This document shows positions 3,001-29,200 of a stretch of DNA of 32,000 bases, piece by piece. This DNA is from an uncultured archaeon. Lineage in GTDB: Archaea; Iainarchaeota; Iainarchaeia; Iainarchaeales; CSSED10-239. The notes beneath the pieces were generated by a model. It made no database searches. It had not been told where the DNA came from and saw only the letters and a program-made list of their open reading frames with translations. The translations under genes and the position numbers were made by a program. The stretch's first letter is position 1, and every line of letters begins with the position of its first letter. The stretch lies in assembly GCA_964591795.1 (NCBI GenBank), contig CAZQEL010000001.1, forward strand, positions 52,779-84,778, in the 5' to 3' direction.

Positions 3001-5733
3001 AAGATCTGATACAACAAAGTTAATTGGTAAAGTATAAATTACTGATTGTTCAGAAACAATTCTAGTTTGAAGTTTTGATTGTCCTAAAATTAATGGGAAT
3101 AATTTTAAATTAAAATTTATATTTGAAAACGGATTTAAATTATCCTTTAAAAGTTCATTTTCATAAAATGGAAGTTTAAAATTAGTTTCTCCAGTTGCAG
3201 TTTCGCCCACTGATGAAAATTCACCTGTAACATCATATGATTTAATACCAACCATAGCTGTAGGATTACCTTCAGAATTAACATTAACTGCTGAAAGTCT
3301 AGCATCAGGATAATTATTAGGTGATGAGTTTGTTATTTGATATTCTAAAGTATAATCAGAGTTAACAAGCATTGGAATATTTTTATTTCCTCCAATATCA
3401 TATCTTAATCCTTCTGAAACATCAACATATTGTCCTGAGAAACAAAATGTAGTATTACAAAGACTTGTTGCTTCTACAAAATATTGTAATTGAGTATAAT
3501 TTTGAGTCATGTAGTTTATAGATGTAATTGATGATGTATAAAAGAAAGATACTTTATCATTAGTTTGTGCATTTCTAATTCTTACAGGAATTGTAATTTC
3601 ATGAACTGATGCTGGAAAATCATTTACTTGTATATTTACAAGTTTTGATTCTAAATAATTACTTGAATTTGAAAAAGGTTCACTCTCATAATAAACAGCT
3701 ACACCTAAAGAGTTATTTTCAGACATTATAAAAATAATATCATCACTAACATTTATTTCACTTCCAGCTCTAAGTGTAAAATTAAAATTTGTACTTGAAG
3801 ATGGCATTATAATTTTATATTTTAAATAAAATACTTGATTATTTTTTAAAGATTCAACTTCTTGATAGTCAGTATTATATAAACCTAAATATTCAGTAAC
3901 AACATCTTCAGTTGTAAGCGCTCTTTCTAAAATAATATTTTTAATAATAGTTTTACTTTTATAAATTCTAAACATTTCAGTAAAATAAGGTAAATAACCA
4001 TCAGTTTCTATTTTTATGAAAACTTTTTTATCTGCTTTTATTTGATTTTGCAAAGTACCATTAGCTGAAGCCATTGCAGTTCCTAAAACAGCACCTGTTT
4101 CTGAATAAAAAGTTACTGTTGAATTACCAACTATTTCTTCTAATTTATTTTTTACATTTAAATTAATTGTTCCTTTTCCAATAATAACAGGAAGAGTAAT
4201 ATTTGTATCTGTTGGTGGTAAATTATGATATTCAGAAGAAATTTCTTCAATATAAAGATTCTTTGTCTTAACTGTAAAGTTTAAATCTGGAATATTTTTA
4301 AAAACTGCATTTCCATTTTCATCAGAAATACTAAAATCAAATCTAGGATCAATATATTGCCCATCAGCATCATATAACCAAGATTTAATACCAATAATTG
4401 GTTTATCATCTTCGTCTTTTATTGAAACAATAATATTTGAAACATTACTTATAGTTATTTTTTCTAAATTAAAAGTATATATGTTTAATGAATTAGATAC
4501 TGACATTAAATTTCCAGGAATGTACCCTTCTGCTGCTACTTTAAGTGAATAATTTTTATTAGTATCTACATTAAAAATAAAACCTTCATGAAGTTGTCTA
4601 TCTTCAACATTTTGATTTCCATCTAAAAGTAAAGTAACAATAGGATTTGTAGAAGCATCTAAAACAATACCTGTATCTCTATCTTTTACAAAAACAGTTA
4701 TTTCATTTAAAATAATTTCTTGATTTGTATCTGGATCAATAACAGGACTAATTCCATCTCCAGTATCAATCATATTAATAGTAATTTCAGACATTGCATT
4801 TTTTATAACAATTACATCTTCTTGTGATGCTAAATATCTATTTTGAACATCTGTAGCTTTAACAACATAATCACCAATAGGAATAGAATCAAAAGATCCA
4901 ACCCCAAAGTTTGATTGAATTGTTTTTATTGAACTAACAGGATCATCAACTGAGAATATTTTTAAAGTAATTGAGTCTTCAATATAATACTCTCCACTCA
5001 TTAAAGAAACATAAGCAGATCCAACTTCTAAAGAAATTTCTTTTGGACTTAATCTAATGATTGAATCAGACATTTTTATTGGAATACTTGTAGCATTATA
5101 TTTATCACTTACTACATTTGCATAAAGAGTTTTACAGCTTGAAGGAACTTCTAAAGACACAGAACCATCAACTGTTTCTATTGATGAAGGTGTAATTACA
5201 TCTCCATTATCACAAATAATAGTTACACTTAAAGCATCTTTAATTTTTTGTTCAGTTAAAGCATCTTGAAAATATACAATTTTTGGAAAATTAACTGGAA
5301 TATTTAAAAGACCGATTATAAAATTAAAAGTTTGTCTATCAAAAATTAGTTCTTGTTCATAATAGTCATAACCTTCTTGTTCAACAATAAACAAATAAGA
5401 ATTATTTTTATTTAAGGTGATTTTAAAAGAACCAGCAACATTTGTAGTATAATTATTTGTAGTTCCGTCTGATATGTTTCTAAGTTTAAAATCAAAATTA
5501 CTTAAAATATTATTTTCATTATCAGCAAGCCTTAAAGTTACATCAATGTTATTTGATTTTAATGAACCTAAACTTGAACCAAAAATTAAATAAAGTACTA
5601 TTAAAATAATTAAAATGAATAAAAAAAAAGAAGTTAAAGGATACTTTTTATCTAAAGGACCTGTTATTTTCTTAATTGGAATTCTATTATCTATCCCTGT
5701 AAGAATATTTTGCCATGTCTCTTTAAAACTCAT
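1..5733 (-). CDS. Giant N-terminally anchored surface protein, paralog A (5' complete, 3' end beyond window; 1911 codons in window)
   Basis: Absent from the supplied ORF track, presumably because it is open at the window edge. ATG at 5733-5731 with GGTGAT 4 nt upstream. Hand translation: MSFKETWQNILTGIDNRIPIKKITGPLDKKYPLTSFFLFILIILIVLYLIFGSSLGSLKSNNIDVTLRLADNENN... I read triplets 1-960 in this frame and saw no stop. An internal Met at 1200-1198 is exactly 1511 codons from the start. Domain order is collinear with the 1862-, 2307- and 2645-aa proteins. Confidence 0.88.
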   Translation of the reverse strand, partial: MSFKETWQNILTGIDNRIPIKKITGPLDKKYPLTSFFLFILIILIVLYLIFGSSLGSLKSNNIDVTLRLADNENNILSNFDFKLRNISDGTTNNYTTNVAGSFKITLNKNNSYLFIVEQEGYDYYEQELIFDRQTFNFIIGLLNIPVNFPKIVYFQDALTEQKIKDALSVTIICDNGDVITPSSIETVDGSVSLEVPSSCKTLYANVVSDKYNATSIPIKMSDSIIRLSPKEISLEVGSAYVSLMSGEYYIEDSITLKIFSVDDPVSSIKTIQSNFGVGSFDSIPIGDYVVKATDVQNRYLASQEDVIVIKNAMSEITINMIDTGDGISPVIDPDTNQEIILNEITVFVKDRDTGIVLDASTNPIVTLLLDGNQNVEDRQLHEGFIFNVDTNKNYSLKVAAEGYIPGNLMSVSNSLNIYTFNLEKITISNVSNIIVSIKDEDDKPIIGIKSWLYDADGQYIDPRFDFSISDENGNAVFKNIPDLNFTVKTKNLYIEEISSEYHNLPPTDTNITLPVIIGKGTINLNVKNKLEEIVGNSTVTFYSETGAVLGTAMASANGTLQNQIKADKKVFIKIETDGYLPYFTEMFRIYKSKTIIKNIILERALTTEDVVTEYLGLYNTDYQEVESLKNNQVFYLKYKIIMPSSSTNFNFTLRAGSEINVSDDIIFIMSENNSLGVAVYYESEPFSNSSNYLESKLVNIQVNDFPASVHEITIPVRIRNAQTNDKVSFFYTSSITSINYMTQNYTQLQYFVEATSLCNTTFCFSGQYVDVSEGLRYDIGGNKNIPMLVNSDYTLEYQITNSSPNNYPDARLSAVNVNSEGNPTAMVGIKSYDVTGEFSSVGETATGETNFKLPFYENELLKDNLNPFSNINFNLKLFPLILGQSKLQTRIVSEQSVIYTLPINFVVSDLDKMIVDYEPKNIVPGVPFTLTVIVKDTTGNAVESANINILQKTITGTTIVSTGRTTDAEGKATISLPSLRPGETFIIESIKSKYFADPVEFSITRDIIDIFNNSEIINSNSPLEVFIHKTNMDGEIYTLELKNKTAYPLILNQFNEQDVSFNKSYLLNLLQTVNYLNNQIISTPDGFVIPANESKEILIKFAPSESAQSHSVSENILGALTATYLLNNQKYLFNIPVNVKLSVGNGVLEDDCLVVTQSAGEWNTVVSTTTQSTTLKIKNTCISKEGNLPITIKNVQAKIKSNGDRYGIYFLKLIGSGASNQIQLSENYYRILINEMRPEEEYTVEIAFNTNGAKFAEVKTDIYLNAQVETEEGLTFVNKGSNDILLKANISIMDLTQCLSYYDGGEKINSGGLFVLEDTVAKDLTIKNECFGKATLKMDLCEGNDYSCRDLSIDNTDEENGILNFSLLDSEKTVSIKRKDSTIAPGAYVLNNKISVVNNIGREVTSAYALLKINAKDSSGLWMEDPFIEISDTTKVSESVRLYNNNLEQTPWDYVNSIPTVQDVEQYKAQIAQNGVTVTSTFSDYLSSTFNKQDDAFQKMNYKSLENLEFMGTTDEGAMPVAAAIGITVLAAATVTAVGLSIATAAALEIAVASATAAGSVGFAAVLAAIPVYGWITLAVIVLVSWAATSWKNEFAYPVLNNKYLDVPQKYTLSNGEFLKIITVDDVSDESSYLNIFDITGARYYTYNDLITRTQDSDKIYNKIKDRLTKDADLSLTDYVLCNNPNSSIEDYYSQIIKNRNCDNSFNPTIEDGVLSQSIKCYGAKPTRNRIQLETEMFYTCKVNETLWPEQSGIKPLQFSFTDNIYSHINNDSKKYYFKNYEFNPTLEDSVEIQDPAFANSEKIGNYRFGFFITKPEETQNYNLVVQDCVTDTGKTGKTGSGAVPNVLLDWDWSVQDINRCSEKYCDSTQLTQVVLNRINKAEEFISQRTVLYPLSPQEQVIQSLNGFYY
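958..1200 (-). other. Ala/Gly-rich hydrophobic module in A (residues ~1512-1592), about 2-3 TM-length segments
   Basis: Hand translation: MGTTDEGAMPVAAAIGITVLAAATVTAVGLSIATAAALEIAVASATAAGSVGFAAVLAAIPVYGWITLAVIVLVSWAATSW. The GC-richer GCN codon run is visible in the DNA at 1000-1190. Confidence 0.7.
3919..5571 (-). other. Protein-level array of about six CarboxypepD_reg/PEGA-like beta-sandwich repeats in A (residues ~55-605)
   Basis: Recurrent pattern of about 85-95 aa, for example IDVTLRLADNENNILSNFDFKLRNISDGTTNNYTTNVAGSFKITLNKNNSYLFIVEQEGYDYY. This matches the V.V.D..g.p...a.V.l......T...G.f.i.l..g.Y.v.v...GY logic of carboxypeptidase-regulatory-like domains. Hand translated, boundaries approximate. 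Confidence 0.55.
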
Positions 5734-5755: not shown

Positions 5756-8677
5756 TTAATTTATTATACATCCATCGTTGTTTTCAATCCATATAGTTTG
5801 TGATTCACTTGATAGATCTCCACCGAATAATGGTTCTGATACTGCAATAGGATTATAATATATTTTTAATGAATTACCAGTGTAATCAATACATGCTTTC
5901 TTTTCATTAACAAGATTAAAAATCTCACTTACAAACTTAATATCATTTTCTAAAATATTATTAAGTATAACAGAGTTTGATCCACTTGTATTATCTTTTG
6001 TAAAAAACAATGCTGAATCATCAGCTGAATCTTGATATAATACACTTTTACCATTACCTGTTTTAAAATTACTTGGAGTGTATAAAACTGTTCTTAAATA
6101 AACATTTCCATGTCTTGTAATATTCTTTGCTTCCCATTCAACACCATAAGACACTGCTTGACTTGGAGTAATTGGTGCAAGTCTTGATGAAAGTGCATGT
6201 ACATCTGGTCTTTCAAGATAAGCTTCTTGTACTGATATTCCTGAAAAGTCAAGACAATTACCAATACCTGTCCATGGAACTAAAGTTCCTGAAGTAAGTG
6301 CTGGTTCTCCACCTTGATTTTGTGGTCCACCAATATCAAGTTTATAGAAACTATAAGCATCATTTGCTTGATTAGATACTTTTAAAGCAACTGGAGTTGC
6401 TCTTGATGGTATAAAATAAAGTTCTGGATTTGTTTTATTTTCAGATAAATTAATACTAAGTAACATACCTCTTGTTGAACCGTTATTTAAGAAAGAAAAT
6501 TCATTTGGAAGACGTCCATATTCCTTTACACTTACAGTATTAATTGTATTTGATTGTGTAAAAGGTTCTGTTCTTAAATATTGACCAGTTGCAGTTTCAA
6601 CAATTGTTACAATATCTCCAGTAAAATCAATACCATAACCTTGTCTTGCGTTATCTGAATCAACACCTACAAGTCCATCAAATGGCATATAATAAAGAGG
6701 AGAATCTCTTTCTGGTGAAATTTCTCTAGATAAAACTATATCTACATTTCCTGTAATATTGCCAGCATCATCAAACAATCTCCATTGATCGTCAAATGTT
6801 ACATCTAATAAAACATTATATCTTCCAGGACCTTGTAAAATAAGTCTTCCTGATTCTGAATCCATTGTTGATTTAAAATTAAAATTATTAGATATAAAAT
6901 ATTTATAATATTTTTCAATATAATCTGTTGGAGCTGCAGTTATTGTAAATCTATAATATCTATCAAAATCTGATTTAAAATCATCAGAATATCCATCTTT
7001 CATTAAATAAGATCTAAACTCAACTAATGAAGTATCAATCTTTGTGTTCTTTGAATATAAATTTAAATTCCTTGAAATCTTTGGTAAATTACAAACTTCT
7101 GAATTTGGAGTAAATATGTTTTCTAAAATATTATCCAATTCTGAATCTACAATACTATATGGGGTATCCAATATTAAAACTGCAGAAACTTTTAAACTTG
7201 TAGTATCATCTAAAATTATTCCAACATCAAATGATTCATTTCCAACATAAACTTCATTATTAAAATCATTTATATTTAAAGTAATTAATTTTGATTCAAC
7301 TTGAACATTATTTTTATAAACTGTTAAACTTAAATGACCATATGGAGAAGGAGATATATTTTTATCAGCATTATTAAAACCACCTTCTATTCTATAATCA
7401 ACAGCAATATATCTATCATCATAACTTGAATTTAAAATAGTTAGACCTAAGTTATCTGTTGCAGAAACTAAATTTTGAGTAACACCTGGTGTTGGACAAG
7501 TGAAATCTCCTTTATTTGTTTGAACAAAATCATCTATTTCTTTTAATTTATTTAAAAGTTCAATTGAGAACTGTGTTGAATCACAAAAGATTGATTGTTT
7601 ATCAGCTTCTCCTGTTAAATCAGCATCACACCAATTAAGAGTATTTACATACTTATCTGAAATTAATTGTACCTCTTGATTATATCCAAAATCCCAATTA
7701 AATGCAATCTTTGGTAATATTTCTGAACCTGTTTGTCCTAAAAGCATTCCACTTTCAGTAACACAATTAACTTGATCAAGATTAGTATTATCAAGCACAT
7801 CTCTTGTATAAGAATTAAATATTAATTTAAATGGTTCAGTTACAATTTCATCTTTTCTATTATCATTTATTATTTTTAAAAAATTATCATTTCCACTTAA
7901 AACTCTACTAATTTTTATTAATGGAGTACCTGTTGAAAAAGGTGAAGCTAAGAAAGTTAACCAATCTCCACTTAAAAATTTACCATTAAATATATCGTTT
8001 GGAGTTAAACTATAACTAATATCATTTATATATGTTGATTTAGGATATTTAACAACAAAATTTCTATATTCGTATTCGTTTTCAATAGTTTTTGCAGGAT
8101 CTTCAAATAATATTTCTCTTTTTTGAATATCTAAAACATCATTATTTGAATCTAAAACTTGTGTTAATTTTGTTTTGTCAGCAAGTCTAAATGTTGGTGA
8201 ATTGCTACCATTATCTATTTCTATTAAATTTTTAACTTTTATAAACTGTGCATCAAGAACATTTTTATCTGTTAATAAAATATTTTCATATGGTAAATAA
8301 TCGGGTATATCCTTTGCATCCAATTTATTAACATATACAAAATCTTCAACATGTTCAATTGTATAATCTTTAATGTCATTTGAAATATTTACTTTATCTC
8401 TATCAAGCGCAAAATTAATTTCAACTTTTGATAATGAACTAAAAGTTTTAAATGCTGAAAAAGCACCTACTAAAATTCCATGAACAACAGGACTTAATCC
8501 AAATACTTTGGTTAAAAGACCACCTCCAGAACTAAATAGTGAATCTACTAATCCCTTTCCAACAGCTTCTGTAGCATCATCATTGCCGGGTGCAGCTACA
8601 GGCACGCTAATAAAAGAAAGCATTAGAGTTATCATTAATATTATTCCTAGGAATTTAGTTTTATTTTCATATTTCAT
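5756..8677 (-). CDS. Secreted or N-anchored protein B, a 'headless' paralog of the C-terminal modules of the giant proteins
   Basis: 973-aa ORF in track, TAA stop. AAGGTG lies 8 nt upstream of the ATG. N-terminal hydrophobic signal/anchor FLGIILMITLMLSFISVPVAA. No CarboxypepD_reg array. By eye it shares GKG..LFSS with E, NCVTESG..WDF and FCDSTQF with A and D, YYMPFDG with D and E, and a C-terminal FNLVNEKKAC..KIYYNP with D. Confidence 0.93.
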   Translation of the reverse strand: MKYENKTKFLGIILMITLMLSFISVPVAAPGNDDATEAVGKGLVDSLFSSGGGLLTKVFGLSPVVHGILVGAFSAFKTFSSLSKVEINFALDRDKVNISNDIKDYTIEHVEDFVYVNKLDAKDIPDYLPYENILLTDKNVLDAQFIKVKNLIEIDNGSNSPTFRLADKTKLTQVLDSNNDVLDIQKREILFEDPAKTIENEYEYRNFVVKYPKSTYINDISYSLTPNDIFNGKFLSGDWLTFLASPFSTGTPLIKISRVLSGNDNFLKIINDNRKDEIVTEPFKLIFNSYTRDVLDNTNLDQVNCVTESGMLLGQTGSEILPKIAFNWDFGYNQEVQLISDKYVNTLNWCDADLTGEADKQSIFCDSTQFSIELLNKLKEIDDFVQTNKGDFTCPTPGVTQNLVSATDNLGLTILNSSYDDRYIAVDYRIEGGFNNADKNISPSPYGHLSLTVYKNNVQVESKLITLNINDFNNEVYVGNESFDVGIILDDTTSLKVSAVLILDTPYSIVDSELDNILENIFTPNSEVCNLPKISRNLNLYSKNTKIDTSLVEFRSYLMKDGYSDDFKSDFDRYYRFTITAAPTDYIEKYYKYFISNNFNFKSTMDSESGRLILQGPGRYNVLLDVTFDDQWRLFDDAGNITGNVDIVLSREISPERDSPLYYMPFDGLVGVDSDNARQGYGIDFTGDIVTIVETATGQYLRTEPFTQSNTINTVSVKEYGRLPNEFSFLNNGSTRGMLLSINLSENKTNPELYFIPSRATPVALKVSNQANDAYSFYKLDIGGPQNQGGEPALTSGTLVPWTGIGNCLDFSGISVQEAYLERPDVHALSSRLAPITPSQAVSYGVEWEAKNITRHGNVYLRTVLYTPSNFKTGNGKSVLYQDSADDSALFFTKDNTSGSNSVILNNILENDIKFVSEIFNLVNEKKACIDYTGNSLKIYYNPIAVSEPLFGGDLSSESQTIWIENNDGCIIN

Positions 8678-14353: not shown

Positions 14354-17300
14354 TTAATTATTTTTAAAGTTATCTGGATTATGCCATAATTTTATTTCTG
14401 AAGAATCTGACATAAAACATACGTTATTATTTTTAATTTCATTAAATACTTGTGTCATATTATTATATGTTAATCTTGGAGACACATTATTCATATTTAA
14501 ATTATATATTGTAAATTGATTATCATTATTTGTTGTTGCTGCGAAAACCTTTGTATATTGTGTAAACTTAGGATTTGCATATATTGTTACTTTTTGATTT
14601 GTGTTATCAGAAAGTAAGAATAATTTTGATGCAACATCTAAAGATGCAATCTCAGTATTATTTTCAGATACTTCTATAAGTTTTAAAGCATAGTTCTTAC
14701 TAAAGTAAAATGGTCTTGAATTTGTAAAATTATAATTTACCATATCCTTTAATGTAAATATATAACCTTCTTGTAAACTTGACCAGTTATCAGTAGTATA
14801 AGTTGTTTTAATATACTCTGGTAAATATGGAGCTCTTAACACATTTAAAGATTTTTGATAATCTGGATTAATTGGCATATAGAATAAAATATTTTGTTTA
14901 TAATCGTCAGAAATTCCATTTACTAAATCACCAATAGTTATTGATACATTATTATCATTTATATTTAAAAGCTTTACTATATAAGTACCAGGAACTAAAA
15001 TATTTTTATCTTCTGTATACTCAAAATCATATTTTTTATATATATTATTATTATATTTAATTAATATTTTATTATTATATTCTTCTTTAGTTTGTGAAAA
15101 CTTCTTAAGATTAGAAGTAAACACTTGTGGTGATGCACCAAAGTAAACTTCCATATCTGAGTATAATGCAACTTTGTCTTCACTTGTTAAGCCTAAGTCA
15201 TTATAATTATCTAAGAAATATTTAACTGTAGTATAATTATAACCTCCAAGTGAAATTATATTACTACCATTTACGGTTAATTTATGTGTTTTAATTATTG
15301 TAATTTCTTTTAGTTCATCAGGAATATTATTTAATAATGATTCTGCAGAAGTAACATATGCATTTATAGAATTGTCACCTTTTGAGAATGCATCACAAAC
15401 ACCATCACATAAATTAACTTTGATTGGGTTTACTTTAATTGTATTATTTGCAATTTCAAAATAAATATCTCCAAGTTTAACAAAGTTAGTTGTGTTACTT
15501 AAATCATCTAAACCATTTGCTTTAAATTTAAGATAATCATAGAATTGTTCTTGATCACAATAATACTCATTACAAGTGTTTCCAGTTATGTTTGAATATT
15601 CAAATAAGATTTTATCAAATCCATATTTTTCATAAGCTTTAGTACCTGTAAATCCATCTTGGTTTTCTGAAAGATCAGGAGCATTACATAAAATTAAATC
15701 TTGTGTATCTAGATCATCTGAATCTGCATTTGGATCAGAAGGTTCAATAAAACTAAGTTCATTAGTTGCAACTTTAGTATCAACACCAATGAAAGTATGC
15801 CCTTGTAAATAAGTTTTACTACTTTCTTCATTTATTGCCCATAATTCAAATTTTTCTTTGAAAAGATCATAAATTGGTAATTTTGAATTTATAACAAAAT
15901 CATTTTCAAATGCTTCAACTGGTCTTGTAAAACATAACTTGAATACATTTTTATTTCTAGTAACAAATTCAATACTTACTTTTAATGGATCATAGGTATC
16001 AGGTAAATAGAACAAACCAATATCTTTAATATGTGAAGTTTCTTTAATCCCAGTTATAGGGAAGTCCTTAACATAACCAAAGAAACATCTAGTTACTTCT
16101 GGTTCTTGATCTATTTGTTTAAATTTATTAAAAGCTAATTCTGCTTCTGGAACTTGTATGAATACAGCATTTCTTGCAGAATCTATTTTATAAGTTAATT
16201 TTACTGAAGTATCAACAAACTCTAATTCTTCATCAGTCATATCCTGATCGCCAGTGAATTCATTTAAAATATCCCAGTTATCTTTATTATCTAAAATTAA
16301 CCACTGAAAATTATCTGTAAGTTGCATACCAATATTATTATAAATTATTGATGATTGACCCTGTGGTGATTGAAGACCAACACTAAGTATAAACTTTAAA
16401 TTAACTGTATCTTCAACATCAATTAACATTCTTCTAAATGTTGAAACTAAACCAGCTGCAACTGAGTTTGTTTTATATTTATTTAAGTATTCTTTTGCAG
16501 AGATTGTTTTTGAAATTTCAGGATTTCTTCTTAATGCAATTTCCCAAACTTCAATTGGATCATTAGTTTTTAAATCTGTTAAATAATCAACCTTTATAGG
16601 TTGAATTCTACCTTGCATTTCTCCTACATTTAAGAAAGAAACACCATCAAAATTTAAATCCATTAAATCAAGATAATTAACTTCAACAAGTCTGTATCCT
16701 TCAGAAAAGCATGAGTTCATAACTTTTACAATTTGGTATTTAGGATCTACTATATTAGAAAAATCTAATTTTTGTGGAGTTACCTGTATACATTTTGAAG
16801 GCATAAAACTTATTGGCAATGTTACACTAACTGGAATTTTTCCAACTAATGAATAAGCAGTACTTGATGAAACTGATGGTTTTACTGAAACAGGAATATT
16901 AAAACTACCCATTTCTTCTCCACCCATTAAAAGAACTTCTTCTGAATCTCCTGGATTTAAAGAAAATTCAGCGTCACTTGTGATTGTAATTCCATAGTTA
17001 GGATCTAATTTTAAATCAACTGCTTCTAAACAATTATTTTTAATATATGTAGGTCTTACAGGACAATTCATATTATTTGTATTACCTTGTGCACCATAAT
17101 TTCCTTGAGGATAACCAGATGAAAAATTATAATTATTATTATAACCAGACATATTTTGAGCTTGACCAGTAGGATAATTATAGGGATTAACACTTGATGC
17201 TTGAGTACCAGTATAACCTGTTTGACCAACTAAATTATATTGAGGATAATTATATCCTTGTTGTTGAGTATAATACCCAGAACCCTGTTGATATTGATTA

Positions 17301-20300
17301 TTTCTATTATATTGATTATTCATATTATAACTTTGAGTAAAATTGTTTCCACCATAATATGGATTATTCATTTGGTTCATTTGTCCAAAATTGTTTTGAC
17401 CATGATATTGATTATACATTCCATATCCACCAAACCAGTTACATCCTAAAATTGGAACTGCTTGTTTTGGTATTTCTATACATGTTGAATAATCGTTAAC
17501 AATTACATTTGTTTTAAGAGAAGTTTCTACAACATCAACACCATTTATATTTCCTTTAGTTGATTTAAAATTAATTATTGGTGTTTCAACAGCAGAGTTA
17601 ATTTTATAAGCTTTAAATTTAAGTTGCATTGTAGTTTTTGAATTTCTAGGCAAACTAGAAATAACTAAAGTATCAACTAAATTTTCTAAAATTGCTTCTT
17701 TATTTGAAACTGATATAGAAAATGTACCTACTTCTGATTTATTTTTCCAATCTAAAGTTGCCATTATTTGTCCAAGATCTACTGGTCTTGAGTTAACAGT
17801 ACATTTATTTTCTAATGTAAAATCAAGAGTTGTTGCTTCATTTGATTTTGTTCTTAAAGTACCTTCAACTGGAAGTATCTTTAAACAATCAAGTGAATCC
17901 AGTGAATTACCTAAAACAATTCTAACTGTAACAGGTATTGTTACTGTCCAAATTTTATTAAGTTCAGTATTTTTAAATTTAATTAAAACATCAGTTTTAA
18001 ATGTTTCTTGAGTATAAAGATTAATACCTTTTTCTGTTAATGTAGCTGAAAGCTCAACATCTGCTTGAGATGCATTATCTATTAAACTATCAGTTAAATT
18101 AAATTTTAAATCAACATATTCACTAGCAGCTGTTTGTTCAATTGACATTACTGTTAATGGAACATATGTTTCATTAATTAAACTAAAATTATAAATTTCT
18201 TTAACATCTCTTGAAGCATCAAGAGTTAATGTTATTTCTTTAGGAACTGGAGTTATTAATTTATCATCAATTACAAGTTCAATATCTTGCATTCTATATT
18301 CATTTTTAGTTACAATTATTCTTAACACATCAGATACATTTGGAGCTGGTAAAATAAATCCAAATAATCCTTGATCATTTGTAACTCCTGTTTCAATAGT
18401 TTCGTTGTTTAATAAAATTGCAACATTTGCATTCTTCACTGAAACATTAGAATCATCACTAACAGATATCATCATATTATTAGTTAAGAAAGGAACTATT
18501 TTCCTAGGAACATATTCAATAGTCATTTTCTTTGCAGCTTTTATATCTATTAATATGCTTTTTGAAAATACTTCTTGTCCGTTTGAAACTACAGTAAAAT
18601 TAATTGTGTCTGAAACATCATCAACAACCTTAAAATTAACTTCACCTGTAACTAAATCGTTTGAAGTTAAGTTACCTAAACTAATTTCAGAAAAGTCATC
18701 ACTTCTAAGTATGCTTCCTGAAGAAGAATTAATTATATATTCTTTTAAAACAACTGAAGAACCAGTAGTTACTAAAAGAACTGCATCAGGAGCTATTTTT
18801 AAGTCCATCATATTAAGACTAAATGAAAGTCTATAATCGTTATTTATTTGAGCATTATATTTATCAACAATACTTTTTGATAAATTTGTTTGTGTATTAG
18901 TAATTATAAAACTATAACATAAAAGAGAAGTACATTGATTGTATGAACCAGTGAACAACTGAACTTGCTTTGATTGTGCATATAATGTTTGCTTTGTACT
19001 TGTTGAAACTAAAGAGGTATCAACTGGTGTTCTTACAACACTTGCACCCTTATAAAATTCAGCTCTATAATTTACTGCTTGATTTGTAAAAGCAGTATCA
19101 AGAACAATAATATCAGCTTCAATTAAATGACTTCCTAAAACTGGATTTTTAATAGTTAAATTAAACCATTTTGCATTTCTTAAAGTTTTGTTTGAAAAAT
19201 CAGTTGTTTGACCTAAACATGGTGTATAAGTTAATGAACCTAAAACATCAGATTTAGAATATCTAACATCTTTAATAAATAAATTATCTTCTGAAACATT
19301 ATAAGATCTTGTAGAACATAAAGGATTTGGTGTTTCTCCAGTTCTAATATGTGCAGTTACTTTTGAAAATGATTTTGTAACATTTAAAATAAATCTTGCA
19401 GTTACTTGTGCACCAGGAGCAACTGAATTAATTTTTTCTCCAGTAGCATCATAGAAACCTAAAAATTCAATTCCAGATGTATTTGAACTTCTTGGTAAAG
19501 TAAACTCTAAGTTTTTAACTTCACTTGCATCAATTGAATATCTTGGAGTAATAAATTGTGATTCAAAATTATCTATAGCAAAATAAACTTGTTTATCTGC
19601 TCTAATTTTTATTAAAGTAAAACCATCTTGGTTAGTTGTTGTTGTTTTATCATTAAGTATCATATCATTTGAAGAATCATAAACATATATGTTACCAGAA
19701 TAATTTTCTCCAAATTCTGATTTTAAAATTAAATTAAATGTTCCTTCTCCAATTACCATTTTAATTGTTTGTTCGTTAATTTCTTGTTCTGAAATTTTAA
19801 ATGGATTTGTATAATCAGAAGTAAATTTTCCTTTAACTGCATCAAGTTTATATGTTCTTTCAGTATCTAAATTTGTAACAATAACTTTACCATAAATATC
19901 AGCTGTCATTGTTTGAAGAACAATACCTTCATCAGCATCCCAAAGTCTAACTGTTGCAAAATCAACTGGACTTAATAATACATCTTTAACTGTAATTATT
20001 AAACTTCTAATATTTTCATTTGTAATTGGAACTAATGAAATTGGTTTAACATTATCATTTATTCTTAAATTATTTTCTGTTTTTAAAATATAACTTTCGT
20101 TATTGAAAACTACTTTATAAGAAATATTTTCCTCAACACCAAAAGACACTAAACCAGTATCATCAGTAGTTTCGGTTTTAATAACTACATTTCCTTTGTA
20201 CAAAGAAGTTGTAACATTTAAAACAGGTTCTTTTGTAATTGCATTAACAACTTTAAATTTAAGTTTACCAATGAATGCTTTTTCAATTAAAACTTCACTA

Positions 20301-21277
20301 GTCGCTAAAGCACCATCAACAAAGCTAATTTGAACTGAATCAAGTTCACTTATAGGTTTATACCTATCATCATCATCATAAATCACAACATAGTATGTTC
20401 CTACTGAAACAGCATTAAAATAAACTACACCATTTGTGTTTGTAACACCTTCACGCACTGCTTGACTTTGCATATTATAAATTGAAACAGATACATTTGA
20501 AACTGGAACTTTTAAATCTTTATCTAAAACAGTAATTGTTCCATCACCTAATTTCATTGCTTCAAAACTTAAGTTAACTTCACCAGCTGCATTATCTTCA
20601 TTTACTTCTAAAGATTCTAAAGCATTAACTGTAGATGATTCTATTGACACTTGTAAATAACCACAATCAGAAGGAATATCTGTTAAAGTAATTATTCCAT
20701 CATTTATAGAAATATCACTTTTTATATAATCTTCATTTCCAGAACATGTTATACTTGAAACTGTTAATGGAGATGAATATAATTCGTTATTTGATTTAAA
20801 ATTAATTGTTTTAGAAAGAGTTTTTATTTTTAATTTTAAAGTTACAGTAAAGTTTAATTTTTCACTAAAATTTATTTCCTGAGGAGTTTCAATTAAATAT
20901 TTATCACTATTAATACCTAGTGTGATTTTTTCTTTTTTAACATCTGAGACAATTGCAGCACCATAAGCATCAGAAACTAATTGTTTCTTAGTACTACCAA
21001 ATAAAATATTAAAGGATTGATTAATTATAGGTTCGTTTTGATTATCAACAAATTTAAGAGCATAACTTTCATCTGTAGTTGGAGTTGTTCCAACAAACAT
21101 AAAAACTAAAAATATTATTAAAAGCAGTATAATTAAATTAAATAATAAAAAAGTTGGAATTCCATGCTTTTCTAAAGGATCAACAATTTTATATAAATTT
21201 ATTCCTTTTTTTTCTAAGTTATCAAGAAACTTAAAATATTTTTCTTCTTGTTTGTAGTAAAAAGCTCTTAAACCCAT
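14354..21277 (-). CDS. Giant N-terminally anchored surface protein, paralog D, with CarboxypepD_reg/PEGA-like repeats and a Q/N/Y/G-rich insert
   Basis: 2307-aa ORF. ATG at 21277 with no Shine-Dalgarno but TATA-like sequence about 15-30 nt upstream. N-terminus MGLRAFYYKQEEKYFKFLDNLEKKGINLYKIVDPLEKHGIPTF followed by the TM helix LLFNLIILLLIIFLVFMFV. Confidence 0.95.
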   Translation of the reverse strand: MGLRAFYYKQEEKYFKFLDNLEKKGINLYKIVDPLEKHGIPTFLLFNLIILLLIIFLVFMFVGTTPTTDESYALKFVDNQNEPIINQSFNILFGSTKKQLVSDAYGAAIVSDVKKEKITLGINSDKYLIETPQEINFSEKLNFTVTLKLKIKTLSKTINFKSNNELYSSPLTVSSITCSGNEDYIKSDISINDGIITLTDIPSDCGYLQVSIESSTVNALESLEVNEDNAAGEVNLSFEAMKLGDGTITVLDKDLKVPVSNVSVSIYNMQSQAVREGVTNTNGVVYFNAVSVGTYYVVIYDDDDRYKPISELDSVQISFVDGALATSEVLIEKAFIGKLKFKVVNAITKEPVLNVTTSLYKGNVVIKTETTDDTGLVSFGVEENISYKVVFNNESYILKTENNLRINDNVKPISLVPITNENIRSLIITVKDVLLSPVDFATVRLWDADEGIVLQTMTADIYGKVIVTNLDTERTYKLDAVKGKFTSDYTNPFKISEQEINEQTIKMVIGEGTFNLILKSEFGENYSGNIYVYDSSNDMILNDKTTTTNQDGFTLIKIRADKQVYFAIDNFESQFITPRYSIDASEVKNLEFTLPRSSNTSGIEFLGFYDATGEKINSVAPGAQVTARFILNVTKSFSKVTAHIRTGETPNPLCSTRSYNVSEDNLFIKDVRYSKSDVLGSLTYTPCLGQTTDFSNKTLRNAKWFNLTIKNPVLGSHLIEADIIVLDTAFTNQAVNYRAEFYKGASVVRTPVDTSLVSTSTKQTLYAQSKQVQLFTGSYNQCTSLLCYSFIITNTQTNLSKSIVDKYNAQINNDYRLSFSLNMMDLKIAPDAVLLVTTGSSVVLKEYIINSSSGSILRSDDFSEISLGNLTSNDLVTGEVNFKVVDDVSDTINFTVVSNGQEVFSKSILIDIKAAKKMTIEYVPRKIVPFLTNNMMISVSDDSNVSVKNANVAILLNNETIETGVTNDQGLFGFILPAPNVSDVLRIIVTKNEYRMQDIELVIDDKLITPVPKEITLTLDASRDVKEIYNFSLINETYVPLTVMSIEQTAASEYVDLKFNLTDSLIDNASQADVELSATLTEKGINLYTQETFKTDVLIKFKNTELNKIWTVTIPVTVRIVLGNSLDSLDCLKILPVEGTLRTKSNEATTLDFTLENKCTVNSRPVDLGQIMATLDWKNKSEVGTFSISVSNKEAILENLVDTLVISSLPRNSKTTMQLKFKAYKINSAVETPIINFKSTKGNINGVDVVETSLKTNVIVNDYSTCIEIPKQAVPILGCNWFGGYGMYNQYHGQNNFGQMNQMNNPYYGGNNFTQSYNMNNQYNRNNQYQQGSGYYTQQQGYNYPQYNLVGQTGYTGTQASSVNPYNYPTGQAQNMSGYNNNYNFSSGYPQGNYGAQGNTNNMNCPVRPTYIKNNCLEAVDLKLDPNYGITITSDAEFSLNPGDSEEVLLMGGEEMGSFNIPVSVKPSVSSSTAYSLVGKIPVSVTLPISFMPSKCIQVTPQKLDFSNIVDPKYQIVKVMNSCFSEGYRLVEVNYLDLMDLNFDGVSFLNVGEMQGRIQPIKVDYLTDLKTNDPIEVWEIALRRNPEISKTISAKEYLNKYKTNSVAAGLVSTFRRMLIDVEDTVNLKFILSVGLQSPQGQSSIIYNNIGMQLTDNFQWLILDNKDNWDILNEFTGDQDMTDEELEFVDTSVKLTYKIDSARNAVFIQVPEAELAFNKFKQIDQEPEVTRCFFGYVKDFPITGIKETSHIKDIGLFYLPDTYDPLKVSIEFVTRNKNVFKLCFTRPVEAFENDFVINSKLPIYDLFKEKFELWAINEESSKTYLQGHTFIGVDTKVATNELSFIEPSDPNADSDDLDTQDLILCNAPDLSENQDGFTGTKAYEKYGFDKILFEYSNITGNTCNEYYCDQEQFYDYLKFKANGLDDLSNTTNFVKLGDIYFEIANNTIKVNPIKVNLCDGVCDAFSKGDNSINAYVTSAESLLNNIPDELKEITIIKTHKLTVNGSNIISLGGYNYTTVKYFLDNYNDLGLTSEDKVALYSDMEVYFGASPQVFTSNLKKFSQTKEEYNNKILIKYNNNIYKKYDFEYTEDKNILVPGTYIVKLLNINDNNVSITIGDLVNGISDDYKQNILFYMPINPDYQKSLNVLRAPYLPEYIKTTYTTDNWSSLQEGYIFTLKDMVNYNFTNSRPFYFSKNYALKLIEVSENNTEIASLDVASKLFLLSDNTNQKVTIYANPKFTQYTKVFAATTNNDNQFTIYNLNMNNVSPRLTYNNMTQVFNEIKNNNVCFMSDSSEIKLWHNPDNFKNN
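17066..17446 (-). other. Q/N/Y/G-rich prion-like low-complexity segment in D (residues 1278-1404)
   Basis: GCNWFGGYGMYNQYHGQNNFGQMNQMNNPYYGGNNFTQSYNMNNQYNRNNQYQQGSGYYTQQQGYNYPQYNLVGQTGYTGTQASSVNPYNYPTGQAQNMSGYNNNYNFSSGYPQGNYGAQGNTNNMNC. It contains almost no charged or aliphatic residues. Confidence 0.9.
19496..21080 (-). other. Protein-level array of CarboxypepD_reg/PEGA-like repeats in D (residues ~66-594)
   Basis: Examples: ITVLDKDLKVPVSNVSVSIYNMQSQAVREGVTNTNGVVYFNAVSVGTYYVVIYDDDDRY and LKFKVVNAITKEPVLNVTTSLYKGNVVIKTETTDDTGLVSFGVEENISYKVVF. Confidence 0.6.
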
Positions 21278-21448: not shown

Positions 21449-23113
21449 CTAATTTGAAACACATGCAGCAGTACCAGATTCTCCTGCTTCATAAGTTTTA
21501 CAACTCCATCCAGGATCACTTGTTTGGTCTACAATTGTAAATAAATTAAAATAACCATTATTATTTAACGATGCAAGAGGTACAGGATCAAAAAATGAAT
21601 ATTGAGAATAACTATCTTCTAATTTCACATATATTTTTGTAGTTTCATTTGAAAGAATATATCTCGGATTAGTTTCATTAAATTCAAAAAGTAAACTAGA
21701 TTTTTTAGGAGTATGACATCTAAGATATTGATTATCTGGAACTTGATTAATCACAGAAGTATCATTTAGGTTAAATAAATTACCATCTGCATCAATAGAC
21801 AGTCCAAGATTTGATGCTTTATTAAAAAATAATATATCAAATGTATCTGAAGTTAAAGTAGTTAATGAACCATTAAAATTAATCAATTTTTCAGAAATAT
21901 TTTTTGTAATTTTACTATTAGAAAGCATTTTAACATCACATATTTCAAAATCATAATTAGAAGTTAAATTATTTAAACAAGATAATCCATTTTCACTAGT
22001 TAATTTTAATCCACCCTCATAACCTATAAAACTTCTATTATCTAAATTATTTTTAACAGTAGTTTCTAAAAGATCTAAAAATATTGATTGAATATGAGAT
22101 GTTTGAAGATTATAATCAAATGAATCTGATAAATTAATAGTAGTTCCTAAAACTATAATTCCATTTCCATTATTTGCTTGAAAATTAATTACTTCTTCAG
22201 GTGCTTTACATTCTGCTCCTATAAATCCATTTTTAGTAACTGTTTTATACAAGTCTGTTCTCGGAGCACAACTATCTATATCACAAATACCAACTTTTGC
22301 ACTGTTTAATGCATAATTAATATGAGGATTCAAAAAACCCTTTGAATTATAAAGATTATTTAAAATATATTCACTATTTTCTTCTTTTTCAAGATCAACT
22401 CCAAGAGCAAAATTTCTTACAGTTCGCATTGCTTGAAAACCTCTCCAAGGTAGATAAATTCTATATTCTCTTCTTGCAAAAACAGGTCTCTGAATAACTT
22501 GATCATCAATATTTCTTTTAACTACAATCATTGGTAATTTTTCATAATCCGTTGACGATAACTTTCTTGTATCTATTTTAAAATAAAGAGTACCAATACA
22601 AAAGTCAGATGCTTGTTCACAACCAATAACTTTTATTTTTTCATCAGAAGCAATAAAAGCTTTTCCAATTATATCTGCAAGTTCAACTTGATTATAATCA
22701 GGAATTGTAATTGTATATCCTAAAGGAGGATTAGTATACTCTAAAGACTCAGTTACAGATAATGCAAAATAAGTTTCAAAACTATTATCAAAAAAAATTT
22801 TATTAGCATAATTCTCAATAAATCCATTCCAATCCATAGTTGCAAATTGTCTTGTAATAGTTACAACATTCTCTGGTTCACTTCTATATTCAGCCCATCT
22901 TTCTCTAAAGCTTACAACAAAAATATTAAATGCATCTGCTCTTGATAAATCTGCAATTGTCATTAGATCTGATGTTTTTGATTGATCTTGAATTAAAGAT
23001 AAATAGTTTTCTTCAGTTTGAACCATATTATATACAAAAACAATAGTTATTGATACAAGCATTAAAGCAATTAAGGCAGTAAAAAGATTAAATCCTCTTT
23101 TATTTTTAAGCAT
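21449..23113 (-). CDS. Large type IV pilin-like protein with a class III signal peptide
   Basis: The track ORF 21449..23128 begins at a TTG. The in-frame ATG at 23113 has GGTG 9 nt upstream and gives MLKNKRG/FNLFTALIALMLVSITIVFVYNMV. That is a short basic leader, then Gly, then a hydrophobic helix of about 22 aa, the layout of prepilin-peptidase substrates. There is no Glu at +5, which is more archaeal than bacterial. C-terminus has a Cys pair, CKTYEAGESGTAAC. TAG stop. Confidence 0.9.
   Translation of the reverse strand: MLKNKRGFNLFTALIALMLVSITIVFVYNMVQTEENYLSLIQDQSKTSDLMTIADLSRADAFNIFVVSFRERWAEYRSEPENVVTITRQFATMDWNGFIENYANKIFFDNSFETYFALSVTESLEYTNPPLGYTITIPDYNQVELADIIGKAFIASDEKIKVIGCEQASDFCIGTLYFKIDTRKLSSTDYEKLPMIVVKRNIDDQVIQRPVFARREYRIYLPWRGFQAMRTVRNFALGVDLEKEENSEYILNNLYNSKGFLNPHINYALNSAKVGICDIDSCAPRTDLYKTVTKNGFIGAECKAPEEVINFQANNGNGIIVLGTTINLSDSFDYNLQTSHIQSIFLDLLETTVKNNLDNRSFIGYEGGLKLTSENGLSCLNNLTSNYDFEICDVKMLSNSKITKNISEKLINFNGSLTTLTSDTFDILFFNKASNLGLSIDADGNLFNLNDTSVINQVPDNQYLRCHTPKKSSLLFEFNETNPRYILSNETTKIYVKLEDSYSQYSFFDPVPLASLNNNGYFNLFTIVDQTSDPGWSCKTYEAGESGTAACVSN
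23021..23113 (-). other. Class III (prepilin-type) signal peptide of the pilin-like protein
   Basis: MLKNKRG | FNLFTALIALMLVSITIVFVYNMV. The putative cleavage site is after Gly7. Confidence 0.6.
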
Positions 23114-23122
23114 CTGTATATA

Positions 23123-23126
23123 CACC
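23123..23126 (-). promoter_or_regulatory. Shine-Dalgarno core GGTG for the pilin-like gene (supports ATG 23113 as the start)
   Basis: Minus strand reads AATATTGGTGTATATACAGATG, with a 9-nt spacer. Confidence 0.4.
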
Positions 23127-23190
23127 AATATTTATAAAATATTAATTAAAATATATAGAAGTAGTTTAGGTTTTTATATATTTCTTTTTT

Positions 23191-26200: not shown

Positions 26201-29200
26201 AATTTAGCTTGAGCTTGAGAGGATACTTGTTTTATTTGACTTTGAAGTTCATCTACTTTTTTTAATAAAAATTCAGCAGAAGATAAACCATCACAATAAC
26301 CTGAACTCTCAGTACAAGCACCTATTGATACAACCGGTGTATTTATTGTACTTGTATTTTGAGAATCACTGCATAAAGGTAATGAAGAAATATTAGAAAC
26401 CATTTTATCTCTAGATTCTTCTACAGAAGCATCCTGTATATTTATAGACACAGTAAAATCTTCAGATGAAACTTGGTTACCCGAATTTAAAAGTCTACCT
26501 AAAATTATCATTGGCATTTTTGGAGAACCACCAAGTGAAATAGCACTAAGTTCTAAATTATAAGTTGCTGTTTGATTAGGATAAATTATATTTCCAGAAC
26601 CACTAGCTGGAGATATCTTTAAAGGATTTAACCCAAATGTTTCTGTGTAAGCATCAAGTTTTTTATCAATACCAATAACTGAAACTGGTTCTGCACAATA
26701 ATTTGTTAAAGAAACATTTCTATTTCTTTTTTCTCCAACTTTTAAAGTAAAATCTAAATGTTTATTACTTACTTTTAAACAATTTGGAGAAGAAATTGTA
26801 AACACAATTTGAGTTGTAGCACTAATTGGATTGTTAATACCAGCCGCTTTACCTGTAACTAAAATAAACATATTGTCAGTTGTTGATTTTTTAATATTCA
26901 CTTCAAATTGAAGATCAATAGGTATTGTTTTACCTGGTTCTAAAACATTAATTTCACGAGGATATTCTGTAACTCCAATATTTGAAGAAACTATTTTTGG
27001 ATATTGACTTATTTGAATATCAGTAATTGGAACAGTACCAATATTTTTAATCATAAATCTAGTTGAGTTAACTGCAGATTGTTGAGCATTAAGTTGTGAA
27101 ATTGGAACTTGTATTAATGAAGGCATAATCCATAAAGCCTTACTTAAATCTAAAAGATCTATATTTAATAATGATGGAGAAACTGAATAATAATTGTTAT
27201 TCCATAAAATATCATAGGTATATTTTGCTGCTTGTTTTCTATTAGAATGATTTTTAATAATTACATCATACACTTTTTCTTCTCCTGCAAGAACAGTAAC
27301 ATTACCTAAAGATAATTCAATATCTTTGTTTGCAGACATAGAAGATGAAGTATATTGTGGTGTAAAAGTTACATTTTGAGAACAATTATTTTTTATAATA
27401 AAGAAAGTTGTGTTCTCTGTATATTCACTTGTTGTATTTGGCATTGATGAATAATAAGTATAATAATTAGGATCAGTATAGGTTCTAGTATTAGATGAAC
27501 CTGAATAGTTTCTAGTATTATTCTGAGATGACATATATTCGTCATAACTATTATAGTTTTGAGATTGAGCTAATAATGGATTTTGATTATTATTGGAATT
27601 ATAATTATAACTGGTATAAGGTGTATTAAACACATCAGGTGCAGTGTATTCTAAATTTAAACCAACAAAAGAATTTACTGCATTTGGAGTAATTGTTAAA
27701 CAATCACTTAAAATAAGCCCTTTATTTATTCTTACAGGAATTATTTTTGTGATTTCTCTAGAACCAATTGTTGCAAAGATTGGTATTTTTACGTATGCAG
27801 TTGTAAATTGTAAATCATTACCAATTGTAACAACAGCTTCAAAAATTTGAGAAGATTTTTTATTAATTGAAATTGCACCTCTAATATCAACAAAAACATC
27901 ACTAGGGCCTTCAATCCAAATAGGATCTCCAAATCTTATATTATTTGCAATATAATCTCCATTGTTTTGTATTGAAAAACTTTGAGATGAAGTTATTTGA
28001 TCAGTTCCTAAGTTAATTAGAATTTCCTGTGGAGTTAAAATAAATAAAGAATCATCAACAATATATAATTCTTTTTCAAAAGGAGTATAACCGTAACTAT
28101 CAACAACCATGGTTATTGATGAAAAATTAAATTTATTATCTATTGTGTATTTTCCATTTTCACCATTAGTACCTTCTGCTTTTACAAATAAAATAAATTC
28201 AAGAGTTTCAGTATTATAAAATGAAATTACAGCATTATTAATTGAAGATAAATTAGATGCATCTAAAACATCAACAGTAAATTTAGAACCATATGGTACA
28301 AATGAATCAGGATTAACCACTACTTTCATTTCTTTTTTATCATGAATATTAAAACTTAATCTATTATCAGAAACTGAATTACCTAAAATTGTATCAGTTG
28401 ATTTAAGATCAATGTAAGCTGTACCAATTTCTTTTGCAATAAAAGAAAGATATATCTTTTTTAAAACATTACCTGAAATTGATAGGCCATCTCTTGTAAC
28501 TTCAAAACTATCAATTGATTGAGATGCATTATTTAAAGATCTATTATCTGAAAATAAATTTAATGACACCAATGGAAAACTCTTTGATGTTTCTGCTAAA
28601 ATATTTAATTGAGTATTTTTTAAAGAATAAATATTTGTTTCAAGAATATATTCTTCGCCTTTGACAGCATAGAAATCCTCAACACTAAATTCATTATCTT
28701 TTGAATCTATAAACTTATTAGAAATACAAAAATTATCTTTACAATCTAAAGGTACATCAAACAAATCAACAACAACTTCTTTTGTGTTTGCATAAAGAGC
28801 TGATTTTTTGTTTGTTGAATAACTTTGATTTAAAAAAGTGTCTATTGGATCTCTAAAATATAATTTATTTTCTTCGTATAAAACTCTATATTTAAATTTT
28901 AATTTTGTAACAGATAAATCAACAGCACTTACTTTAATTTTAATTTGTTTGTTTGAAAGTGGTATTGTTGACACCCATTTAAGTTCAAGCCATTTATTTA
29001 AAACATCAGAAGAACCCTCATTTAAAAAATCTGTTGACTGCATTCCAGGTTCTGGAGCAGGATTATAGGAAGTACTATATTTAAAATTTGTAATATCCAT
29101 GGCCATAAAACCATTTATACCATAACTCATTTCTTCAGAATCAGTTTGAGTATCATCTCCTGCTCTGATATGCACTTCTCCCTTATAAACGTTTTCTGGG

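Follow-up and report, generated by a model that had tools for sequence, protein, structure and literature searches.

A conserved, uncharged loop with evenly spaced aromatic residues in giant proteins of Iainarchaeota and other DPANN archaea

The 32,000-nucleotide (nt) window considered here (positions 52,779 to 84,778 of contig CAZQEL010000001.1, assembly GCA_964591795.1, from an uncultured archaeon of the Iainarchaeota) contains a giant gene, designated D, that codes for a segment made up largely of Asn, Gln, Tyr and Gly, and the question raised by this locus is whether such a segment is a prion-like domain, a product of mutational bias or a conserved element with some other role in a presumably extracellular protein. 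Translation of positions 17066-17446 on the minus strand gave a 127-aa string (GCNWFGG...NTNNMN). The coordinates assigned to this insert in a first-pass annotation were correct to within 3 nt, the flanking cysteines being C1279 (nt 17441-17443) and C1405 (nt 17063-17065), and the C...C frame described there (STCIEIPKQAVPILGC...NCPVRPTYIKNNC) was found around the insert. Counts from C1279 to C1405 were 29 N, 20 Y, 19 G and 19 Q (together 68.5%, with N+Q at 38%), along with 25 aromatic residues, six aliphatic residues (I/L/V/A) and a single charged residue (R). The segment therefore exists as described and is a far outlier in composition within the window, where the N+Q+Y+G content of other 127-aa segments (seven proteins, approximately 10,400 aa) averaged 21.4% (SD 4.0%) and reached at most 37%. 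Thus, AT bias alone does not make such runs, the commonness of which in other proteins had been put forward as a reason to doubt an adaptive interpretation.

The distribution of the insert was evident from a profile search that covered 1.84 billion cluster representatives exhaustively and yielded 289 matches; the loop was delimited (hmmsearch domain coordinates snapped to cysteines) in 144 of the 150 matches listed. With the cysteines of the host domain numbered C1 to C4 (residues 1266, 1279, 1405 and 1416 of D), the C1-C4 span was 63-242 aa in 109 of these 144 representatives, 107 of D-type and two of C-type, and 25-41 aa in the other 35, all of C-type, where type was assigned by best BLAST match and the representatives are phylogenetically related. 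The D-type group, as classified by BLAST and gene order, consists of N-terminally anchored proteins of approximately 2,200-2,700 aa with conserved synteny, which by best reciprocal similarity are nearer to D than to the paralogues A, C and g23233 encoded in the same window. All 107 D-type representatives examined, from Iainarchaeota/Diapherotrites and Micrarchaeota, contained the long loop, and it was retained by orthologues with as little as 22% identity. Thus, the loop characterises the D group in at least two DPANN phyla and is, judged from sequence comparison, ancient and conserved. One homologue, P0014, was noted to contain a second G/Y/N/P-rich low-complexity segment (aa ~1560-1600) approximately 150 aa downstream of the loop.

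Comparisons of orthologues, proposed in the first-pass annotation with respect to both loop length and possible absence of the insert, indicated that the loop is kept at the insert site of D in all homologues from 62% down to 26% identity, with an approximately four-fold range of length across the long-loop family; in proteins of the P0015-P0017 type (21-24% identity), the loop is 26 aa. Among full-length orthologues with 57-62% identity to D, identity was 55-65% in the loop and 65-69% in the flanks, while among distant homologues the loop diverged faster (11-34% as opposed to 20-44%) and changed in length. In two sets of ten relatives with at least 90% identity, the loop contained no gapped columns and was substituted at rates similar to those of the rest of the protein, mostly conservatively (Y/F, S/T, V/I). 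These findings exclude both recent slippage and a hypervariable tract as explanations of the loop. An origin of the insert by DNA slippage or tandem repetition was likewise rejected, given that Tandem Repeats Finder detected nothing beyond micro-arrays of 20 and 39 nt in the insert DNA and that close relatives showed no loop indels. Codon usage of the insert was similar to that of the remainder of gene D, no internal repeat was visible in the loop peptide, and a sequence search of the PDB with the loop returned nothing significant (best E = 0.26). The segments of paralogues A and C with which the insert had originally been compared (CLVVTQSAG... and CLAVSNTFW...) align to the preceding domain of D, which begins at aa 1131, rather than to the insert-bearing domain; the conclusion that A and C have short loops nevertheless holds, since the true positional equivalents in these proteins are also short.

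Compositional features of the loop differed in how they are conserved. Relative to the rest of the protein, the 109 long loops were enriched in aromatic residues (median 20% versus 8%) and depleted of charged residues (4.6% versus 23%) and of I, L and V (6% versus 23%), with median G, S+T and P contents of 15%, 16% and 7% and with Y and F accounting for 14% and 4% of pooled loop residues. N+Q (median 18.5%, range 4-38%, as opposed to 10% in the rest of the protein) was correlated with the FYMINK/GARP ratio computed from each protein outside its loop, which served as a proxy for AT bias (rho 0.5, p = 4e-8), whereas aromatic content was not (rho -0.08); charge depletion and aromatic enrichment were independent of this proxy. 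Thus, the resemblance of D to yeast prions partly reflects AT bias superimposed on an uncharged signature in which about one residue in five is aromatic, and Q/N richness fails as a conserved property of the loop. The aromatic residues are also patterned. For 92% of the 109 loops examined, the gaps between them were less variable (by coefficient of variation) than the mean of shuffled sequences (median z = -1.41, with a Wilcoxon p of 3e-17; z = -1.48 for the D loop), and adjacent aromatic pairs numbered 194 as opposed to the 408 expected. In eukaryotic prion-like low-complexity domains, even aromatic spacing favors reversible, liquid-like association over aggregation. By aromatic fraction, low charge, polar or Gly spacers and even spacing, the loops of the D family qualify as aromatic sticker-and-spacer sequences, and the D loop does so by predicted disorder as well.

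The same data bear on the proposition that the loop is neutral filler, i.e., a tolerated, functionless low-complexity expansion shaped by mutational bias. The GC content of about 26% across the 32-kb window, taken as that of the genome, is consistent with this proposition, as are the dependence of N+Q on the AT-bias proxy and the four-fold variation in loop length. Neutral filler is nonetheless strongly disfavored and effectively excluded by the presence of the loop in every D-type representative examined from two phyla and its absence from all 35 short-loop C-type representatives, by charge depletion and aromatic enrichment that do not follow the bias proxy, by the non-random spacing of aromatic residues, and by the lack of indels in close relatives and of any slippage or repeat signature in the DNA.

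Results that pertain to prion-like or amyloid character pointed in both directions. The PAPA-type scoring suggested in the first-pass annotation was performed with our own PAPA-like re-implementation, the results of which are approximate, as are the comparisons with Sup35N and the FUS low-complexity (LC) domain. By this code, the D loop scored 0.206 against a threshold of 0.05 and Sup35N scored 0.093; of the other proteins of the window, only g23233 passed the threshold (0.076). The FoldIndex of the D loop was below zero, and its composition was correlated with those of Sup35N (r = 0.87) and FUS LC (r = 0.58), the corresponding values for pooled family loops being 0.74 and 0.73. The D loop is therefore prion-like by a compositional definition (Q/N-rich, few charged residues, score over the threshold), as had been claimed, but this description does not extend to the family, in which Q/N richness is not conserved.

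A functional amyloid or prion-like domain would adopt cross-beta structure and zip neighboring giant molecules together as fibres, matrix or adhesion nanodomains, perhaps in a self-templating manner. Besides the score and composition of the D loop, an argument for this possibility comes from a PLAAC scan of archaeal proteomes (Zajkowski et al., bioRxiv 10.1101/2020.07.20.212902), in which candidates amounted to approximately 0.1% of proteins and AT bias was noted as a confounding factor. This preprint reports that some archaeal candidate prion domains form amyloid, and its supplement includes PLAAC-positive fragments of giant Micrarchaeota membrane proteins (A0A2G9PFM9, 2,009 aa, and A0A2G9NZV2, 1,744 aa). 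These fragments may belong to the D family, in which case the family would already be present, unnoticed, in a published list of prion candidates. In the same study, however, the sole cell-wall-related candidate tested was negative by both Congo red and a yeast reporter. Further arguments against amyloid are that N+Q falls to 4% within the family and tracks the AT-bias proxy, that proline and glycine are retained, that even spacing and depletion of adjacent aromatic pairs constitute an aggregation-avoiding pattern, and that the loop has no curli-type internal repeats, no CsgA-like repeat being visible in the peptide and only the above micro-arrays having been found at the DNA level. Moreover, a hairpin and a putative clasp described below hold the two ends of the loop no more than a few angstroms apart, which constrains in-register stacking without forbidding it. 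With Q/N richness not conserved, aromatic residues evenly spaced and the cell-wall candidate negative, amyloid is a minority reading that we regard as improbable.

The structural setting of the insert was evident from AlphaFold2 (AF2) runs performed on D aa 1100-1640 with 13 sequences and on D aa 1246-1510 with 37 sequences. Both produced confident beta-sandwiches with predicted local distance difference test (pLDDT) values of 90-97 and placed the insert between strands A and B of a PapD-like/ASH sandwich, while approximately 120 residues of the insert were without regular secondary structure and had pLDDT values of 23-33 and 33-48 with the smaller and larger alignment, respectively. The insert is accordingly predicted to be intrinsically disordered. 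Foldseek searches with the host sandwich matched the PapD-like domain of HYDIN (2e6j, E = 5.9e-5, target-normalised template-modelling (TM) score 0.49), an MSP-like structure (1row, TM score 0.58), CsuC and the ASH domains of OCRL and CEP192/Spd-2; for the host domain and its neighbors the Foldseek probability was 1.0 and target-normalised TM scores were 0.45-0.58, and the two-domain model matched HYDIN-type chains of the central apparatus with E = 1.7e-9. The AF2 placement together with the matches to PapD-like, ASH and MSP folds thus supports the original description of the insert as lying in a loop of a beta-sandwich domain and specifies the fold. Pfam returned no match over D aa 1100-1640, and the sole clan-related Pfam match was a weak one to Cep192_D4 in paralogue A (E = 0.086).

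Of the four cysteines, C1 and C4 were invariant, including in short-loop paralogues, and C2 was nearly invariant in alignment A1. Across the 109 long loops, C2 and C3 occurred together in 50, were both missing from 59 and were never found singly (Fisher p = 3e-32), and this state changed at least 12 times on a neighbor-joining tree of the flanks. Given such co-presence and co-absence with at least 12 independent switches, a disulfide clasp is well supported, and C2 and C3 very probably form one, much as the first-pass annotation had suggested in proposing that the extra cysteine pair closes the insert into a disulfide-bounded loop. Covariation of the clasp cysteines also stands against neutral filler. 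Two disulfides probably staple the antiparallel A-B hairpin. A C1-C4 disulfide, at one end of the hairpin, would be that of the ancestral domain, and a C2-C3 disulfide would pinch the base of the loop so that the latter projects sideways from the stalk, free of tensile load.

Each of two short motifs, one at the entry and one late in the loop (Table 1), has a position that is the same in 90% or more of the sequences, namely Y1288 and P1369, which correspond to the near-invariant Y43 and P124 of alignment A3, and a DPY...YGYGTG motif was present in many family loops. These observations raise the alternative of a specific partner-binding loop, in which G[YF]Gx[YF], DPY and YPxxxYxxP[FY] would dock a defined protein (another giant of the cluster, the 973-aa or 559-aa protein, or the S-layer), the loop folding on binding and its remainder serving as linkers. 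Persistence of the motifs in both phyla, loop identity close to flank identity among close orthologues, the complete lack of loop indels in close relatives and a strict six-gene synteny suggestive of a multi-protein assembly are all in agreement with this alternative. The stretches between the motifs, on the other hand, vary freely in length (C1-C4 spans of 63-242 aa) and in sequence but retain their composition and the spacing of aromatic residues, which indicates that the whole loop matters and not the motifs alone, and the deeper alignment brought no AF2 structure or gain in confidence for the insert. Docking through the motifs is, in addition, compatible with a sticker-and-spacer loop rather than exclusive of it; taken as the explanation of the loop, it appears possible but on balance doubtful.

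A post-translational scaffold, in which dense glycosylation (N-linked, or O-linked to Tyr, Ser or Thr) or cross-linking (dityrosine, Gln isopeptide) would harden the cell coat, was considered in view of three N-x-S/T sequons in the loop and of its plentiful Tyr, Gln, Ser and Thr. Tyr-linked S-layer glycans and dityrosine-cross-linked structural proteins rich in Gly and Tyr exist elsewhere. Sequons were not enriched, however, since the loop contained 2.4 of them per 100 aa, barely more than the 1.7 per 100 aa found elsewhere in the protein, despite a more than two-fold higher frequency of N. Lysine, the usual partner in Gln cross-links, made up only 0.3% of pooled loops, and no oxidase, transglutaminase or glycosyltransferase gene was found in the 32-kb cluster. 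Hardening of the coat by modification of the loop is therefore a decidedly remote prospect.

The position of the loop relative to the cell can be estimated from the layout of D, which consists of a short cytoplasmic N-terminus, a single transmembrane helix and a long chain of immunoglobulin (Ig)-like domains; the N-terminal part of D matches the Pfam families CarboxypepD_reg, bMG3 and SdrD_B. The helix is preceded by a K-rich cytoplasmic motif that is conserved and, among close orthologues, invariant, and application of the positive-inside rule to the uncharged membrane-spanning stretch gives a probable N-in/C-out topology. D is thus N-terminally membrane-anchored and, as was proposed at the outset, most likely extracellular, and the loop would begin approximately 1,200 residues, or some 11-12 Ig-like domains, out from the anchor. 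All of the giant paralogues were noted to share a motif of about 40 aa ahead of the transmembrane helix, FY.K.E.KYF..LD.LE.KGI..YK..DPLEK.GIP.F (21080-21277 on the minus strand in D; also in C and g23233), which suggests a common cytoplasmic partner or a sorting signal.

A second loop of this kind occurs in g23233 (Table 1). It was 51-65% identical in four orthologues, and the region that contains it could be aligned, though weakly (E = 4e-6), with the loop-bearing domain of an orthologue of D. Thus, g23233 is a second paralogue with a conserved loop in the six-gene syntenic cluster, at a similar distance from the anchor, and the location of its loop suggests that the loops of D and g23233 could meet at similar heights above the membrane. 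An extension of this idea, in which the two loops mesh into a two-dimensional cohesive layer that would be an extracellular counterpart of an FG-nucleoporin or prion-like condensate, is speculative and in our estimation unlikely. If true, the layer could serve as adhesive pad or as selective gasket, either where the DPANN cell meets its host or at the height of the S-layer, and condensate-type material physics would exist outside the archaeal cell, conserved in two phyla.

Considered together, the loop is real, ancient, constrained in both length and sequence, predicted to be disordered, very probably clasped, and evenly patterned in its aromatic residues. The interpretation that we favor, with a confidence about equally divided between acceptance and doubt, is a disordered, uncharged sticker-and-spacer loop for weak multivalent cohesion or adhesion at the cell surface. 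According to this interpretation, Tyr and Phe residues would serve as evenly spaced stickers with N, Q, G, S and P as spacers between them, in a loop inserted into the hairpin between strands A and B of a PapD-like/ASH Ig domain midway along the stalk of a giant surface protein. The most likely job of the loop would be weak, multivalent and reversible binding through aromatic and polar contacts, for which other copies of D, the g23233 loop or a glycan or protein surface of the host cell are candidate partners, and the outcome would be bundled or clustered stalks or an adhesive pad. Cohesive or adhesive function, extracellular location and disulfide formation in vivo are what we infer from these features.

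Several considerations count against the sticker-and-spacer interpretation. Low pLDDT is no proof of disorder. The representatives from which loops were taken share kinship, so that statistics for composition and patterning overstate the independence of the observations. Conserved motifs and conservation near that of the flanks could reflect folding on a specific partner, and the score of the loop well above that of a yeast prion domain leaves room for cross-beta assembly. Of the 109 loops, 59 do without a clasp, and formation of disulfides in an archaeon of an anoxic aquifer is an assumption.

Gene D belongs to a single minus-strand cluster of six giant genes and one gene for a small membrane protein, which fills the window (Table 1). 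Identical copies of D were present in NCBI/ENA, and its orthologues occurred in Candidatus (Ca.) Forterrea multitransposorum (complete genome, 839,632 bp) and in metagenome-assembled genomes (MAGs) of Ca. Iainarchaeum/Diapherotrites, while remoter members of the family carried the labels Ca. Iainarchaeum and Ca. Micrarchaeota. The gene order 2671-559-D-C-964-A was common to a JGI contig, Ca. Forterrea multitransposorum (CP045477.1, 233298-260266) and the Ca. Iainarchaeum MAGs; the cluster is equivalent to about 4% of the 0.84-Mb genome of Ca. Forterrea.

Table 1. Positions of genes, domains and motifs in the 32,000-nt window
Feature	Position (nt)	Strand	Description
Insert (loop of D)	17066..17440	-	125 aa, aa 1280-1404; N/Q/Y/G-rich, predicted disordered
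Entry motif GGYGMY	17414..17431	-	Family consensus P-[YFW]-N-x-G-[YFW]-G-x-[YF]; includes Y1288
Late motif NPYNYPTGQAQN	17153..17188	-	Consensus [YF]-P-[NSY]-x-x-[YF]-x-x-P-[FY]; includes P1369
Strand A CIEIPKQAVPILGC	17441..17482	-	C1 (aa 1266) to C2 (aa 1279); AF2 strand, alignment A1 residues 175-178
Strand B CPVRPTYIKNNC	17030..17065	-	C3 (aa 1405) to C4 (aa 1416); AF2 strand, alignment A1 residues 308-315
Rest of PapD-like/ASH beta-sandwich	16793..17029	-	aa 1417-1495; AF2 pLDDT 90-97
Preceding PapD-like domain	17492..17887	-	aa 1131-1262; AF2 pLDDT >90; segments of A and C used in the original comparison align here
Predicted signal-anchor transmembrane helix LLFNLIILLLIIFLVFMFVG	21089..21148	-	aa 44-63; 31-residue uncharged stretch from aa 38
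Gene D	14354..21277	-	2307 aa; listed open reading frame, translated; identical NCBI/ENA protein
Loop of g23233	27382..27702	-	aa 1157-1263, about 105 aa, N/Y/S/T-rich; C...FFIIKNNC frame; PxxFNTPY entry motif
Paralogue A	1-5733	-	At least 1,911 aa; runs off the left end of the window
973-aa protein gene	5756-8677	-	
Paralogue C		-	1,862 aa; cluster member
559-aa protein gene	21449-23128	-	
g23233		-	2,645 aa; first giant gene of the cluster
111-aa membrane protein gene		-	Cluster member

Pfam searches over the cluster returned just generic Ig-like modules (CarboxypepD_reg, bMG3, SdrD_B and Big_1), confined to N-terminal halves, and NCBIfam returned zero matches to the cluster proteins; the D family has neither an NCBIfam model nor a name. 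Neither the gene cluster nor the loop was described in the literature found by search, and the cluster genes went unmentioned in the Forterrea genome paper and in papers on DPANN cryo-electron tomography and dark matter. Identity with an S-layer protein was rejected, the characterised S-layer protein of Micrarchaeota being a 101-kDa PF05123 protein of a different family. Several features of the neighboring genes and homologues were also noted. The N-terminus of the 559-aa protein (MLKNKRGFNLFTALIALMLVSITIVF), which had no match in Pfam or NCBIfam, resembles a type IV pilin or class III signal peptide, a hint that a pilin-type pathway could process or assemble part of the cluster. Paralogue A contains a long Ala/Val/Gly-rich hydrophobic segment (aa ~1520-1590), probably several transmembrane helices, by which it may cross the membrane again, and a comparable segment is present in P0015-P0017. 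The C-terminal module of the 973-aa protein (...MKDGYSDDFKSDF..., ...YYMPFDG.VG.DS...R.GYG..F...) recurs at the C-termini of giant proteins (D and P0013-P0017) and represents a second family of uncharacterised domains in the cluster. Another homologue, P0080 of Micrarchaeota, is 3,046 aa long and has a CAP (cysteine-rich secretory protein) domain at its C-terminus.

Comparison with known systems indicated partial likeness to several of them. The loop resembles the prion-like domains of FUS and hnRNPA1 by sequence in being approximately 100-150 aa long, predicted disordered, nearly uncharged and 15-25% aromatic, with evenly spaced aromatic residues among G, S, N and Q spacers, whereas it differs from them in being archaeal and presumably extracellular, in being pinned at both ends within a PapD-like Ig domain as opposed to forming a terminal tail, in often having a putative disulfide clasp and in carrying conserved short motifs. 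Likeness to Sup35 N and to archaeal PLAAC candidates is compositional (Q/N/Y/G content and a PAPA-like score over the threshold), the Q/N richness of the D family being lineage-specific and its loops being presumably extracellular, embedded in a domain and free of oligopeptide repeats. The host domain has the fold and the typical strand-B signature (F-x-[IV]-x-N-x-[CG]) of ASH/PapD-like/MSP domains, as in HYDIN, CEP192, OCRL and chaperone-usher proteins, but lacks a significant Pfam sequence match; we are aware of no reported ASH domain in which the A-B loop is a low-complexity stretch of 100 aa or in which cysteines form a double staple. FG-nucleoporin cohesive domains, which work by multivalent weak cohesion, a proposed likeness to the D loop, are similarly uncharged and disordered, have regularly spaced aromatic residues in polar spacers and have a fixed point of attachment to a scaffold. 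The stickers of the D family, in contrast, are mainly Tyr rather than Phe, are not arranged in FG or GLFG repeats and are presumably located at the cell surface. Other giant surface proteins of DPANN archaea, e.g., those of Nanohaloarchaeota (PMC10266531), are alike by description in being multi-thousand-residue, membrane-anchored, Ig-rich products of reduced symbiont genomes and are presumed to mediate host contact; the tyrosine-rich loop of the D family was absent from the literature searched.

With regard to prion surveys, the D family illustrates that a prion-like appearance can be an AT-bias overlay on a conserved trait of uncharged aromatic stickers, which calls for caution in proteome-wide scans with PLAAC. 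If the proposed cohesion is true, the known range of sticker-and-spacer domains would come to include the surface of archaeal cells. DPANN archaea spend their lives attached to other cells, and the molecules by which they make contact are almost uncharacterised; a tyrosine-rich loop fixed at one point of a giant stalk provides a concrete handle.

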